DNA from: Minisyncoccota bacterium
GTDB lineage: Bacteria; Patescibacteriota; Minisyncoccia; JBAYJV01
Direction of reading: 5' to 3'
Length of the DNA stretch: 64,000 nucleotides
Assembly (NCBI GenBank): GCA_041664925.1
Contig: JBAYJV010000004.1
Span: 26,998-90,997 of the forward strand
The position numbers and the translations under genes are program-made. This document shows, in pieces, positions 24,764-37,340 of this stretch (positions are counted from its first letter, which is position 1; each line of letters starts with the position of its first letter). The notes under the pieces are model-generated. The model saw only the letters and a list, made by a program, of their open reading frames with translations. It did no database searches and was not told where the DNA came from.

Positions 24764-24878
24764 CTTGGCAACAACCTACTCTCCCACCCTTAATAGGACA
24801 GTACCATAGGCGCTGGCAGGCTTGACTTCCGTGTTCGGAATGGTAACGGGTATTTCCCTGTCGCTATAGCCACCAAGC
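24764..24878 (-). rRNA. rrf: 5S ribosomal RNA
   Basis: The reverse complement reads GCTTGGTGGCTATAGCG...CCGAACACGGAAGTCAAGCC...GGGAGAGTAGGTTGTTGCCAAG. Confidence 0.85.
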
Positions 24879-24902
24879 AATTTTAAGACTCTTTTTTTTG
24901 TT

Positions 24903-27900
24903 AAAGTTAGGGGCGTCATCACCTTCGGTTAATTAGTACTTCTTGGCTAAAATCTTCGCAGATCTTACACCTGAAGCCTATTATTCCACCAGAGGTGGAT
25001 ACCTGGTAATCTTCCAGGAACCTTAATGATACTTAATCTTGAGTTAGGTTTCGCACTTAGATGCTTTCAGTGCTTATCCTTTCCCGACGATAGCTACCCA
25101 GCCATGTCCTTGGCAGGACAACTGGTACACCAGAGGTCGGTTCCTTACGGTCCTCTCGTACTAGTAAGGAGTTCTCTCAAGTATCGACGCCTACGGCAGA
25201 TAGGAGACCAACCTGTCTTGCGACGGTCTGAACCCAGCTCGCGTATCTTTTTAATTGGCGAACAGCCAAACCCTTGGGACCTTCTCCAGCCCCAGGATAA
25301 GATGAGCCGACATCGAGGTGCCGAACAGGGTCGTCGATTTGGACTCTCGGACCCTACTAGCCTGTTATCCCCAGAGTAACTTTTATCTGTTAATCTTCCG
25401 CCTTTCTATTAAGGGCGGTCGGTTCACTAAGTTCTGCTTTCGCAATAGCTCGACTAATAAGTCTCGCTATAAAGCTGGCTTATAGCTTTACCCTATCCTC
25501 GCCGTTTCCATCGGCAAGTAGCCAACCTTAATAAGCTCCACCGTTACTTTTTTGGTGGAAAGTGCCCCACTTAAACTACCCGCCTAATACTGTTCCCCAC
25601 TATGTGAGGTTAGAACTATTATTTTGAAAGAGTGGTATTTCACTGGCGACTCCATCCCAACCGAAATCAGGACTTCAAAGTCTCCCACATATTCTACGCA
25701 TCCAAAACAAAAGCTCAATATCAAGTTGCAGTAAAGCTTCTGGGGTCTTTTCGTCTAGCCGTAGGTAATCGGCATCTTCACCGATATTGCAATTTCACCG
25801 AGCTCCTCGTTGAGACAGTTCTCCAGTCGTGACGCCATTCATGCGAGACAGAAGTTACCTGCCAAGGTATTTCGCTACCTTAGGACGATTATAGTTATCG
25901 CCGTCGTTCACTGGCGCTTACATCACGAGCCTTGCCCATAAGGACAAAACAAGCGATGCTTGACGTTCCAGCACTGGACAGGCGTCAGCCCCTATACTTC
26001 CTATTACTAGTTCGCAGAGACCTGTGTTTTTGATAAACAGTCGCCGGAGATCATTTGCTGTGGCCCCGATAAATCGGGGCAGGTCTTATCCCTAAGTTAC
26101 GACCACTTTTTTGCCTAGTTCCTTAACGAGGAATCACTCGTTCGCCTTCCCACTTTTATGGGAACCCACCTGTTTCGGATTTAAGTACGAATCCTATTTG
26201 TCTAATCTGAGAAGTTTTTCTTGGAAGCCTGCTCGCTCTACTTCCCCTGGCCGAGGCCAGAGTTCGATTCACTCCTTTGATTTGTCATTAAAGACAGTTT
26301 CCCGGATTTGCCTAAGAAACAATCCTTAGAGAAAAAACGCGAATCCAATAACGCGCTAGAGTTACTAAACTTCGTCACTCCATCGAAACAAATAGGAGGG
26401 CCGGAATATTAACCGGCTGTCCATCCCCTATACCCTCTCGGGTTAAGAGTTAGGATCGCCTAACCCTTGGCTGAAGTTCATTGCCAAGGAAACCTTGGGT
26501 TTTCGGCGGTCCGATTTCTCATCGGACTTGTGGTTACTCATGCCAACATTCTCACTTCCGTCCTCTCCATCGAACTTTACAGTTCAACTTCACTGTGAAC
26601 GGAACGCTTCCCTACCGCCCAGCAAAAATGCTGGGCCCACATCTTCGGTATTAAGCTTAGCCCCGTGAATCTTCGACGCATTCTGCCACCTCCGGCAAGC
26701 CGGAGTTCGAATGGTGAGTTGTTACACACTCCTTAGATGATTGCTACTTCTGAGCAAACATCCCATCTGTCTATGGCAAAATACTTCCTTCCTCACTTAG
26801 CTTAAATTTTGGGACCTTAGATGGTGGTCTAGGCTGTTTCCTTCTTGAGCACGGAGCTTAGCCCCCATGCTCTTACTGCCCCATAATTATTTCTGGCATT
26901 CGGAGTTTGTTTGGATGCAGTAGGAAAAATCCATCCACACCCATTCAGTGCTCTACCTCCAGAAACGTAAATGAGACGCTAGCCCTAAAGCTATTTCGGG
27001 AAGAACCAGCTATTACCAAGCTCGATAAGCTTTTCACTGCTAACCACAGATCATCCCACTTTATTGCACAGAAGACGGGTTCGGACCTCCTCCGCCTTTT
27101 ACAGCGAATTCATCCTGTCCATGGTTAGATCGCCTGGCTTCGGGTCTGTTGCTAACAACCGTGAACGCCATTTTAAGACTCGCTTTCGCTATGACTACCC
27201 CCACACTTTGCGCTCCATTTTTTTAGTATGAAATGCAAGGCGCGGGGTTAATCAAGCTGTTAACAACAACTCGTTGGCTCGTTCTACAAAAAGCACGCCG
27301 TCAGGGCGTAGAATAAATCTGCACCCCTCCGACTCATTGTAGGTATATAGTTTCATGTTCTATTTCACCGCCCTCACCGGGCTACTTTTCACCTTTCCCT
27401 CGCGGTACTAGTTCACTATAGATCATCAAGAGTATTTAGCCTTACCTGATAGTACAGGTAGATTCCTCCAGTTTCAGGCCGGAGTACTCAAGAATGACAA
27501 CCAGAAGTATATAGCCGTTTTCGTCTACGGGACTTTCACCCTCTTTGGTGGCTCTTTCCAGAGACCTTTGACTAACGAAGCTATATAAGCTCCTCGTGAA
27601 AAAATCACATTGTTATCATCTTACGACCCCCCAACGAAAACGTTGAGGTTTGGGCTGTTCCCTTTTCGCTCGCCGCTACTTGGGGAATACTTCGCTTCGC
27701 ACATTTTATCAAAACTTACTGAAATCTACGCTGAGAAACGCTGAAAAAATATATTATCTGCATTAATCGGCGTAGTCATCAGTATGAATTTGAAATGCGA
27801 AGTTATTTTTGGTTTCTTTTCCTCTGGCTACTAAGATGTTTCACTTCGCCAGGTTACCTTCCCAACATAAATGTCGGGATAATGGCCTTTAAGGCCATTG

Positions 27901-28030
27901 GGTTGCCCCATTCGGAAATCCTCGGATCACAGATTGCTCAGCATCTCACCGAGGCTTTTCGCAGCTATGCCACGTCCTTCATAGGCTCTTGATGTCAGGG
28001 AATCCACTATACACCCTTAGTTGGTGATGA
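24903..28030 (-). rRNA. rrl: 23S ribosomal RNA (about 3.1 kb; ends approximate)
   Basis: Sarcin-ricin loop (rc AGTACGAGAGGACCG at 25151-25167). The 5' end resembles GGTG.ATAGTGGATTCCCTGACATC and the 3' end GTACTAATTAACCGAAGG. Confidence 0.85.
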
Positions 28031-28287
28031 CACCTCTAACTTTAACATTTGATTTTGATTACCTAATATAGATTTTTAAAGTACATTTCCAAGAAAAATC
28101 TTTTATTTCAAATAAAGGACTTTTCTTGGGAAATCAGGGTAACTTAAAAGCCGCTCATTTTTCACAAACACGGGCGGCTTGAACAAACACACTAACGATC
28201 AACTAACTAGCCGCTCGATTAAGGTTTATTTAATTGCCTGATTTTTAACACTATTTTCCAAACAAGCTAAAAATACTTGTACAACAC

Positions 28288-35549: not shown

Positions 35550-35557
35550 GAAAAAAA

Positions 35558-35589
35558 AGAGCTCCAGAAATGGGGCTCTTCTTTTTTTA
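35558..35589. terminator. Bidirectional rho-independent terminator (AGAGCTCC-loop-GGGGCTCT, flanked by A/T runs)
   Basis: aaaaaaaagagctccagaaatggggctcttcttttttt lies between the end of ORF B (+) and the 3' end of 16S (-). Confidence 0.6.
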
Positions 35590-35752
35590 CATAAAAAAAC
35601 ACCCAAAAAATATTAAGTGTTCTTTTTTAAACCAATTCTTTAGGGTTACCCCGAGACTGATTTTTTGAGATGTTCAGTCGCATCTCTGTCTTGTCCAATG
35701 GACAAGAGGTCGACTCCCACCCCGAACAATAAAGTTCAGAGTGAAGATTCTC

Positions 35753-37340
35753 CTTTGAAAGGAGGTGATCCATCCACAGCTTCCGCTACGGATGCCTTGT
35801 TACGACTTCGTTCTGGTCACCGATCTCGCCTTAAGCCCTGCAAAGCAGGGATTTCCAGCGTTACCGACTTCCCTAACGTGACGGGCGGTGAGTACAAAGC
35901 TCGAGAACGTATTCACCGTGGCGAGCTGATCCACGATTACTAGCGATTCCATCTTCATGAGGTCGAATTGCAGACCTCAATCTGAACTGAGGCCAACTTT
36001 GATGGGATTAGCTCCGCGTTACCGCTTCGCAACCCATTGTATTAGCCATTGTAGCGCCTGTGTAGCCCGAGACATCAAAGGACCATGCTGATTTGACGTC
36101 ATCCCCTCCTTCCTCCCCTTTAACGAGGGCGGTCTCGTCTGAAACTTATAACAGACGACAGGGGTTGCGCTCGTTATCCGACTTAACGGAACACCTCAAG
36201 GCACGAGCTGACGGCAACCATGCAGTACCTGACCCCGCTGTTCTTGCGAAGGGCCCGGCTTTCACCGGGATTTCATCGGGATTTCAAGTCTCGGTAAGGT
36301 TCCTCGCTTATCATCGAATTAAACCAGACGCTCCACCGCTTGTGCGAGCTCCCGTCTATTCCTTTGAGTTTTAGTCTTGCGACCGTACTTCCCAGGCGGC
36401 TGACTTAACGCGTTAGCTTCGCCACTTCGAGGGTCGACACTCGGAATGGCCAGTCAGCATAGTTTAGGGCGTGGACTACTGGGGTATCTAATCCCATTCG
36501 CTCCCCACGCTTTCGTCTCTCAGTGTCAGGAAAATACCAGTTGATTGCCTTCGCCTTTGGTGTTCCTGGTAATATCAACGGATGTCACCCCTACATTACC
36601 AGTTCCATCAACCTCTCATTCCCTCTAGCTTGTTAGTTTTCCCGGCAGTCTTTTGGTTGAGCCAAAAGGTTTAACCAGAAACTTAACAAACCACCTACAG
36701 ACGCTTTACGCCCAGTGAATCCGGATAACGCTTGGGGCACTCGTATTACCGCCGCTGCTGGCACGAGTTTAGCGGCCCCTTATTCCTAAGGTACGCTCAA
36801 TTCCGGCAAGCCGGAACTTGTTCTCCTAGAAAAGTGGTTTACAATCCGAAGATCTTCTTCCCACACGCAGCGTCGCTCCGTCAGGCTTTCGCCCATTGCG
36901 GAAGGTCCTTGACTGCAGCCTCCCGTAGGAGTTCGGCCAGTGTCTCAGTGCCGATGTTGGGGGTCATGCTCTCACACCCCCTACCCGTCATAGCCTTGGT
37001 GAGCCATTACCTCACCAACAAGCTGATAGGACGCAGACCACTCCCTAAGCAATAAATCTTTACCCCGCTCCAATTCCAACCACAAATTAACACATATCAT
37101 ATTTACAAAGACGAAGTCGTCTTACGACTCCGTTCGCGACATGATAAAACTTGTGAACAGAATTGGGGCGGGGACCATCCGGCATTAGCCCCGCTTTCGC
37201 GGAGTTATTCCAGACTTAGGGGTATGTATCTACGCGTTACTAACCCGTTTGCCGCTCCCCGGTAAACCGGGGCGCTCGACTTGCATGCCTTATCCACGCT
37301 GCCAGCGTTCATCCTGAGCCAGGATCAAACTCTCTAGTAA
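35753..37340 (-). rRNA. rrs: 16S ribosomal RNA (about 1.59 kb; ends approximate)
   Basis: 3' end rc AAGGAGGTGATCCATCC...TACGGATGCCTTGTTACGACTT. 5' end rc CTGAGCCAGGATCAAACTCT (AGAGTTTGATCCTGGCTCAG) at 37314-37333. Confidence 0.85.

Follow-up and report, generated by a model that had tools for sequence, protein, structure and literature searches.

How does a ribosomal RNA (rRNA) operon come apart, and what becomes of its pieces? The question is raised by the rRNA locus of a Minisyncoccota bacterium (assembly GCA_041664925.1, contig JBAYJV010000004.1), which lies in a stretch of 64,000 nucleotides that was analysed as a whole (the window; unless a related locus is named, all coordinates are window positions). 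The minus strand carries the canonical order 16S/tRNA-Ile/tRNA-Ala/23S/5S, with the 23S-5S linkage kept across a gap of 36 nt, and 16S is separated from 23S by 7,727 bp holding seven open reading frames (ORFs). The answer that we consider probable is that an ancestral operon of this order, at a locus of single-copy type, was broken into autonomous units and that the gaps were then filled by other genes. Five conserved transcription units are predicted, namely 16S, tRNA-Ile, a pair of glycosyltransferase family 4 genes (GT4a and GT4b), tRNA-Ala and 23S-5S, to which inserted genes have been added. We infer that this predicted split is older than the insertions peculiar to the window lineage.

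The gene map, drawn up with Rfam/Infernal and ARAGORN over the window together with the ORF list and Pfam (Table 1), can be set against an earlier reading made from the DNA letters alone (the sequence-only reading). That reading had given the same order and orientation of the RNA genes and a 16S-23S distance of about 7.7 kb, and both are confirmed; promoter-like sites also lie at the positions it gave ahead of 16S and 23S, and terminator-like hairpins where it placed them after 16S and after tRNA-Ile. Its gene list was right for the five minus-strand ORFs but overlooked two on the plus strand, and its count of at least four transcription units agrees with the signals described below.

The first concern with such a locus is whether the joins are real. 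rRNA genes are a classic source of chimeric joins in short-read metagenome assemblies, and the sequence-only reading had itself raised the possibility that the contig is a fusion. Repeated stretches of rRNA or tRNA could in this way have joined two rRNA regions or two strains. Identical joins are found, however, in the JGI, ENA MEGAHIT and Logan assemblies: the ENA MEGAHIT contig is 100% identical to the window, a 93.5-kb JGI contig is 99.98% identical, and a Logan contig independently joins the 3' end of 16S to tRNA-Ile. 16S and 23S are each present once, and their flanks are unique. The upstream side of 16S is occupied by type IV pilus genes, ligA and gatCA, and the downstream side of 5S by a 272-aa ORF and then uppS, 0.9 kb past 5S; both flanks, like the core order, are met again in other species and in independent samples. 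Base composition is even, the GC content of the protein-coding and intergenic parts of the spacer being about 0.30-0.39, the same as in the flanks, and higher only where rRNA or tRNA genes are included. Because three assemblies agree and the core order recurs in relatives from other samples, the split locus is not a mis-assembly, and we give the artefact next to no credence. As for the host, the named neighbours of its GatA are Parcubacteria, Nealsonbacteria and Patescibacteria, and an NCBI protein 100% identical to the TrmB-like ORF of the spacer is named 'Candidatus Paceibacterota bacterium'. A single-protein query with GatA against GTDB genomes returned only distant bacteria (SAR202, Fluviicola, Flavobacterium). 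Judging by its protein matches, the host is an ultra-small bacterium of the candidate phyla radiation (CPR), of Paceibacteria type.

Relatives can be used to tell which parts of the locus are old. The DNA around GatA homologues was fetched and scanned for RNA genes, which gave L007, L009, L010 and L011, all with the same flanks as the window. A metagenome scan with a GT4b alignment, in which the best 80 of 412 matches were examined, added L013, a partial L014 (a short contig fragment with GT4b and then tRNA-Ala) and more loci from the species of L010 and L011. GatA identity to the window is 90% for L007, 64% for L009, 60% for L010/L012 and 59% for L011/L016, and the 16S of L007 is 99.3% identical to that of the window outside hairpin insertions. 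A common core, 16S/tRNA-Ile(GAT)/GT4a/GT4b/tRNA-Ala(TGC)/23S/5S, is seen in L007, L009, L010/L012, L011/L016 and L013, all from other samples; at least six related lineages have this order in common with the window. The GT4 pair lies between the two tRNAs in every clade member found, and in L007, L009, L010 and L011 its orthologues at this place are 58-89% identical to those of the window. Since these identities track GatA divergence, GT4a and GT4b are vertically inherited and under constraint. The bare core is found in L009, where the spacer is only 3.5 kb long and separate 16S, tRNA-Ile, GT4 and 23S promoter-like sites are still present. The tRNA-Ile gene is inverted in L010, L011 and L013.

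Each of the five predicted units has a promoter-like site of its own. The site upstream of 23S is the sole perfect TTGACA-N16-18-TATAAT in the window, where 0.12 would be expected by chance, and the perfect site is found 244-310 nt upstream of 23S in 6/6 lineages, amid diverged spacer. The tRNA-Ile site is likewise the sole match to its motif in the window (0.11 expected by chance), and it travels with the inverted tRNA in L010, L011 and L013. At tRNA-Ala, all six aligned lineages show a TTGATTTT -35 block in the equivalent position. Both rRNA leaders contain conserved blocks that we take to be boxA elements from their likeness to the E. coli and B. subtilis consensus, and the stem around 16S shows compensatory changes in L009. 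Downstream of 16S, homology with L007 extends to 35593, the end of the first terminator-like hairpin. After tRNA-Ile, a T-tract hairpin in L007 and L009 runs into the GT4 promoter-like site.

Together these signals suggest how the units would work. A strong promoter would drive 16S, with a boxA-like leader and a 25-bp stem, presumably cut by RNase III, that would close about 100 nt past 16S, followed by a terminator. tRNA-Ile would have its own TTGATT-type promoter and terminator, the overlapping GT4 genes would be transcribed from their own extended -10 promoter, and tRNA-Ala would have a TTGATT-type promoter of its own with a GC hairpin after it. The perfect consensus promoter would drive 23S-5S, again with a boxA-like element and a processing stem. 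Alternatively, the locus could still be one operon, its whole 12.6 kb read from the 16S promoter into one giant precursor, with the internal promoters as chance matches or minor contributors. The core is co-oriented in the window, L007 and L009, the boxA-like elements could suppress intrinsic terminators, and Lui et al. conservatively scored some co-oriented CPR cases as operonic (PMC8172020). Yet the window 16S is directly followed by two hairpins with A/T flanks and by two plus-strand genes that run towards it, the strand of tRNA-Ile is flipped in three lineages, the 12/12 promoter upstream of 23S is kept in 6/6 lineages despite divergence of the spacer, and the processing stem of each rRNA closes locally. 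We regard a surviving single operon as unlikely.

If the locus is split, the next question is what split it, and when. The sequence-only reading had proposed that an inserted glycosylation/regulator/unknown-ORF gene set broke up the operon, which as a rival account amounts to one recent invasion of an intact operon. The intervening genes do all lie between 16S and 23S, mostly on the same strand, and a TrmB-family 'sugar' regulator beside glycosyltransferases resembles one functional module. However, an alignment of the window with L007 resolves the differences into three discrete blocks with separate breakpoints (Table 1). L007 has the GT4 pair but neither the TrmB-like gene and its two plus-strand neighbours nor the 117-aa ORF nor the 551-aa gene, and the spacer genes other than GT4 have no homologues in the rRNA loci of L007, L009, L010 and L011. 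L009 has the GT4 pair only and already shows separate promoter-like sites. The TrmB-like gene belongs to a family that is patchy over CPR and DPANN, and the nearest homologue, at only 50% identity, has unrelated surroundings. One recent invasion is thus very improbable, and the idea has to be replaced by a clade-wide resident GT4 pair and later, separate inserts. On this alignment, three recent insertions took place independently: one brought the TrmB block, one the 117-aa ORF and one the 551-aa gene. Because L007 lacks them yet has the GT4 pair, and because separate promoter-like sites are found clade-wide, the three blocks would have entered an already split locus. The TrmB block was also considered as a conserved cassette, which was rejected because the 50%-identical homologue has unrelated neighbours.

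The two overlooked plus-strand ORFs belong to the first of these blocks. They converge on the 3' end of 16S, diverge from the TrmB-like gene and are weak tandem paralogues (24% identity) that share an identical 21-nt AAACAAAGGAGGAAATCGTGA Shine-Dalgarno/start region. Since this region is identical in both, translation of the first probably begins at the GTG at 34701. The 117-, 136- and 148-aa ORFs have no match in Pfam, NCBIfam or PADLOC, and a scan of the spacer for RNA families found none besides tRNA-Ile and tRNA-Ala.

Where, then, did the resident GT4 pair come from? Among the best 80 of the 412 matches are about 75 distant metagenome loci in which GT4b is 38-49% identical to that of the window. 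Most of those with enough upstream sequence keep GT4a directly upstream of GT4b, each protein best matching its own counterpart, and none has tRNA-Ile, tRNA-Ala or rRNA within 6 kb. The sequence-only reading had looked to synteny in relatives, and the relatives are informative: the GT4-containing core is common to the clade, and the distant loci keep the pair with no rRNA nearby. There its neighbours are a Bac_transf phosphoglycosyl transferase (25 loci), a third GT4, DUF4012 (52 loci) and MurJ or a DUF11 protein. The Bac_transf, DUF4012 and MurJ/DUF11 partners are absent from the window, so that the link to them is seen only for homologues in distant relatives; the window proteins themselves have GT4 (GT-B) domains and only generic GT4 matches in PDB and NCBIfam. 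Parsimony favours a move of the pair, in the ancestor of one clade, out of a lipid-carrier polysaccharide cluster to its place between the spacer tRNAs. Alternatively, a link of its expression or its product to ribosome synthesis may keep the pair in the rRNA locus, as it would if envelope glycan synthesis were co-regulated with growth rate. Even where GatA identity is down to 59-64%, the position of the pair is conserved, its proteins evolve about as slowly as GatA, and uppS, which makes the lipid carrier for such glycosyltransferases, lies close by, 0.9 kb after 5S. Against such coupling, the pair has a promoter-like site of another type (extended -10), where no boxA-like element was seen, most relatives have it in a polysaccharide cluster away from rRNA, and a low rate of rearrangement near essential genes could equally explain its conserved position. 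We consider functional coupling improbable.

The history that emerges, with an operon broken into units and then filled, can be outlined in stages. The GT4a-GT4b pair would at first have stood inside a lipid-carrier polysaccharide cluster (Bac_transf, GT4s, DUF4012, then MurJ or a DUF11 protein), and in the clade ancestor it would have moved between the two spacer tRNAs. The gaps bounded by promoters and terminators could then have acted as permissive insertion sites. The window lineage would have gained three inserts, one with the plus-strand ORFs and the TrmB-like gene, one with the 117-aa ORF and one with the DUF2330-like gene, and sister lineages would have put restriction-modification (R-M) or other accessory genes into the gap between tRNA-Ala and 23S.

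Several points weigh against this history and must be kept in mind. The promoters, terminators, boxA elements and RNase III processing are all predictions, and the -10 element of tRNA-Ala is weakly conserved. Since the conserved core elements share one strand in the window, L007 and L009, transcription from 16S may to some extent run through to 23S. The direction of the GT4 move, that is, whether the pair entered the spacer or the rRNA genes assembled around the pair, rests on parsimony and on the best 80 of 412 matches, and outgroup gatA and uppS loci sit in other contexts and carry no rRNA. Finally, neither an integrase nor a transposase was found, and the borders of the three insertions and of the L007 cargo showed no convincing direct repeats.

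The gap between tRNA-Ala and the 23S promoter is a variable part of the locus, and its contents in each lineage are listed in Table 1. The R-M systems that L007 and L014 hold there are unrelated to each other. At the edge of the gap, 3' of tRNA-Ala, a GC hairpin precedes a degenerate stretch that recalls the T-arm and acceptor end of a tRNA, and the L007 copy has an intact T-arm, GAGGTCACCGGTTCGAATCCGGTCGAGTCCA. The sequence gives no significant Rfam score and fails to score as a tRNA; it may be a relic tRNA 3' half. Of the marks of tRNA-targeting islands, the cargo has neither a recombinase domain nor att direct repeats. Because two unrelated R-M systems, a partner-switching gene pair, a channel and a DUF2330 membrane protein share one spot across sister lineages, it is tempting to predict, though only tentatively, that the gaps of the rRNA locus, and above all this one, are a 'safe-harbour' hotspot where accessory and defence genes are taken up and exchanged time and again by streamlined Paceibacterota. 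The tRNA-like relic would be a possible recombination site, and in parallel the hairpins of about 95 nt described next would be a small mobile rRNA insertion.

The window 16S contains an extra hairpin of about 95 nt at ~37165-37068 (16S position ~180-275; -54.6 kcal/mol). A homologous hairpin, about 73% identical, lies in another helix of the L007 16S, at position ~76-172 (L007 11704-11808; -50.6 kcal/mol), with none at the window's site, and the 16S of L009 and L010 has neither. The pattern resembles that of a small insertion which has moved to a different site in one of two sister lineages. The window 23S has extra hairpin blocks of 96 nt (27792-27697) and 34 nt (27241-27208) relative to L009, and because of such blocks it measures 3117 nt against the 2925 positions of the model; L009 has its own block at positions 613-710 (blocks of 96-98 nt). 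The 23S and 16S hairpins were considered as one element family and rejected, there being no sequence similarity.

Other insertions were met in and near these loci. A group I intron with a LAGLIDADG ORF lies near the 3' end of 16S in L011 (13051-13415 and 13157-13783), and the 23S of L011 (19882-21145) and of L010 (from 18193) contains internal LAGLIDADG ORFs or long insertions, as is typical of CPR rRNA genes. In the pilus cluster, a PF05635 '23S rRNA intervening sequence protein' gene is inserted in L007 (5091-5510) and L008 (4132-4551) and is missing at the syntenic window site near 43519-43452. In L013, the spacer between the inverted tRNA-Ile and GT4a has grown to about 300 nt with short tandem repeats (CTTGGAACTTAAAA and GGGAACA units, ~250-440). 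Elsewhere in the window are nine more tRNA genes (5725-8516, 17030-17102, 22971-23047 and 60389-61298), which makes this a tRNA-rich stretch.

Table 1. Features of the split rRNA locus and contents of the tRNA-Ala to 23S gap in related loci. Positions are those of the window unless a related locus is named.
Feature	Position	Strand	Details
16S rRNA (1583 nt)	37340-35758	minus	Rfam RF00177, 1432 bits, full model
23S rRNA (3117 nt)	28030-24914	minus	Rfam, 2379 bits, full model
5S rRNA	24877-24763	minus	Rfam
tRNA-Ile(GAT)	33696-33622	minus	ARAGORN and Rfam, 73 bits
tRNA-Ala(TGC)	30469-30397	minus	ARAGORN and Rfam, 71 bits
136-aa ORF	34668-35078	plus	called as a gene in public annotations of the same contig
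148-aa ORF	35103-35549	plus	called as a gene in public annotations of the same contig
TrmB-like regulator, 247 aa, helix-turn-helix	34541-33798	minus	PF01978, E 7e-16
117-aa ORF	33384-33031	minus	no family match
GT4a glycosyltransferase, 385 aa	32921-31764	minus	PF00534 and PF13439
GT4b glycosyltransferase, 393 aa, overlaps GT4a	31771-30590	minus	PF00534 and PF13439
551-aa membrane protein, DUF2330-like	30194-28539	minus	weak DUF2330 match
16S promoter-like site, TTGACA-N16-TAAAAT	37490-37463	minus	11/12; same motif in L007, L009, L010, L011 (all five 16S leaders)
tRNA-Ile promoter-like site, TTGATTTT-N14-TAAAAT	33743-33716	minus	6/6 lineages, 9-38 nt upstream of tRNA-Ile
GT4-pair promoter-like site, TTCTTTTCAAA...TGnTATGCT (extended -10)	32997-32966	minus	6/6 lineages; best conserved block of the intergenic region
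tRNA-Ala promoter-like site, TTGATT-N17-TATATT	30593-30565	minus	9/12; right after the GT4b stop codon
23S promoter-like site, TTGACA-N16-TATAAT	28315-28288	minus	12/12
boxA-like element, 16S leader, TGCTCCTTAAAAA	37423-37411	minus	block TG(C/T)(T/A)C(C/T)TT(A/G)AA in all five leaders
boxA-like element, 23S leader, TGTACTTTAAAAATC	28085-28071	minus	kept as GTACTTTTACAAC, GTACCTTAACAAC, GCACTTTAACAAT in relatives
Predicted 16S processing stem	37394-37370 pairs with 35654-35630	minus	about 25 bp, -30 to -36 kcal/mol, all five lineages
Predicted 23S processing stem	28046-28033 pairs with 24913-24900	minus	-25.3 kcal/mol duplex adjoining the mature ends
Terminator-like hairpin after 16S (A-tract, stem, T7)	35628-35593	minus	-12.8 kcal/mol; equivalents after the stem in L009, L011
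Bidirectional hairpin, A/T-flanked	35588-35551		end of plus-strand ORFs, inside insertion 1
Hairpin after tRNA-Ile, A/T-tract flanked	33507-33480	minus	inside insertion 2
Insertion 1 (1.85 kb, window lineage)	33748-35592	both	7 nt at this site in L007; hairpin 35588-35551, two plus-strand ORFs, TrmB-like gene
Insertion 2 (620 bp, window lineage)	33000-33619	minus	28 nt at this site in L007; hairpin 33507-33480, 117-aa ORF, hairpin 33024-32998
Variable cargo gap, tRNA-Ala to 23S promoter	28320-30348	minus	551-aa DUF2330-like gene in the window; a different 3.6-kb block in L007
GC hairpin CCCCGGCATGCCGGGG, then degenerate tRNA T-arm/acceptor-like sequence	30328-30378	minus	3' of tRNA-Ala; shared with L007 (16245-16290) and L013 (~3040-3090)
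Cargo, L007	L007 16371-19070		MmeI-like type IIG R-M enzyme and two small ORFs
Cargo, L014	L014 1696-5031		two N6/N4 DNA methylases and a BsaWI-like endonuclease (type II R-M)
Cargo, L010			RsbW-like and STAS-domain genes
Cargo, L011			MscS-like channel gene
Cargo, L009 and L013			none

How does this locus compare with known systems? Brewer et al. (10.1101/705046) define unlinked rRNA genes by an internal transcribed spacer (ITS) of more than 1500 bp and count Patescibacteria among the clades where these are common; with 7,727 bp the window locus falls under that definition. The sequence-only reading had called the arrangement unusual, a judgement that the literature overturns: 16S and 23S are unlinked in 27/34 circularised CPR genomes and in 12/13 Paceibacteria, the latter at distances of 6.5-256 kb that bracket the 7.7 kb of the window, and tRNAs and protein-coding genes in rRNA spacers are explicitly described (Lui et al. 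2021 and its S1 Table, PMC8172020). With its 7.7 kb spacer and plus-strand ORFs convergent on 16S, the window fits the CPR category 'unlinked by distance' (Lui et al. 2021, Fig 3D). It shares with these loci a 16S more than 1.5-2 kb away from a linked 23S-5S, tRNAs and protein genes in the spacer (some on the opposite strand), a small AT-rich genome and insertions in the rRNA genes. A split rRNA locus with spacer genes is therefore already known as the rule in Paceibacteria, and the window is a well-resolved example. The CPR surveys give distances and categories; what the window adds is the identity of the spacer genes, with both tRNAs in order around a GT4 pair that is conserved clade-wide, together with conserved unit signals and a staged history of the locus. 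A literature search found no paper on a split locus with embedded GT4 genes, which, the library being limited, is no proof of absence.

Outside the CPR, a close parallel is Borrelia burgdorferi, where protein-coding genes also lie between the tRNAs and 23S. In its split region, reverse transcription PCR resolved three transcripts, 16S-tRNA-Ala, an inverted tRNA-Ile and 23S-5S (Bugrysheva et al. 2011, PMC3037291); the units of the window are predicted from sequence. Both have one 16S, keep both spacer tRNAs and have an autonomous tRNA-Ile (predicted in the window), inverted in Borrelia as in L010, L011 and L013. In Borrelia, however, tRNA-Ala comes before tRNA-Ile and shares a transcript with 16S, and 23S-5S is present as a tandem duplication. 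Because the lineages are unrelated, the two arrangements arose independently. The canonical operon of the E. coli rrnA/D/H type has the same gene order and orientation, boxA-like elements in the leader and before 23S, and separate 16S and 23S stems. It differs in its spacer of about 0.4 kb, against 7.7 kb in the window, where there are also predicted internal promoters and terminators and protein genes between the tRNAs. The locus also resembles tRNA-associated genomic islands, in that accessory cargo varies 3' of tRNA-Ala and a tRNA-like 3' fragment lies beside the tRNA, but it has no integrase and no att-type repeats, and its cargo is only 0-4 kb long.

What this means for the clade can be stated within these bounds. 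The picture of CPR rRNA organisation, in which unlinked genes are the norm, is unchanged. Two small leads are the variable gap beside tRNA-Ala and the rRNA hairpins that relocate. For practical work, annotation and amplicon approaches that rely on the full operon (16S-ITS-23S) will fail for this clade and co-regulation of 16S and 23S cannot be assumed in it. The locus illustrates cleanly how an operon disintegrates step by step, though it would not surprise a CPR specialist. In this staged break-up, the parts would each have kept or gained a promoter, a boxA-like element and a processing stem, the GT4 pair, two housekeeping glycosyltransferase genes, would have settled between the tRNAs and stayed there across deep divergence, and the other gaps would have gone on to collect mobile cargo.

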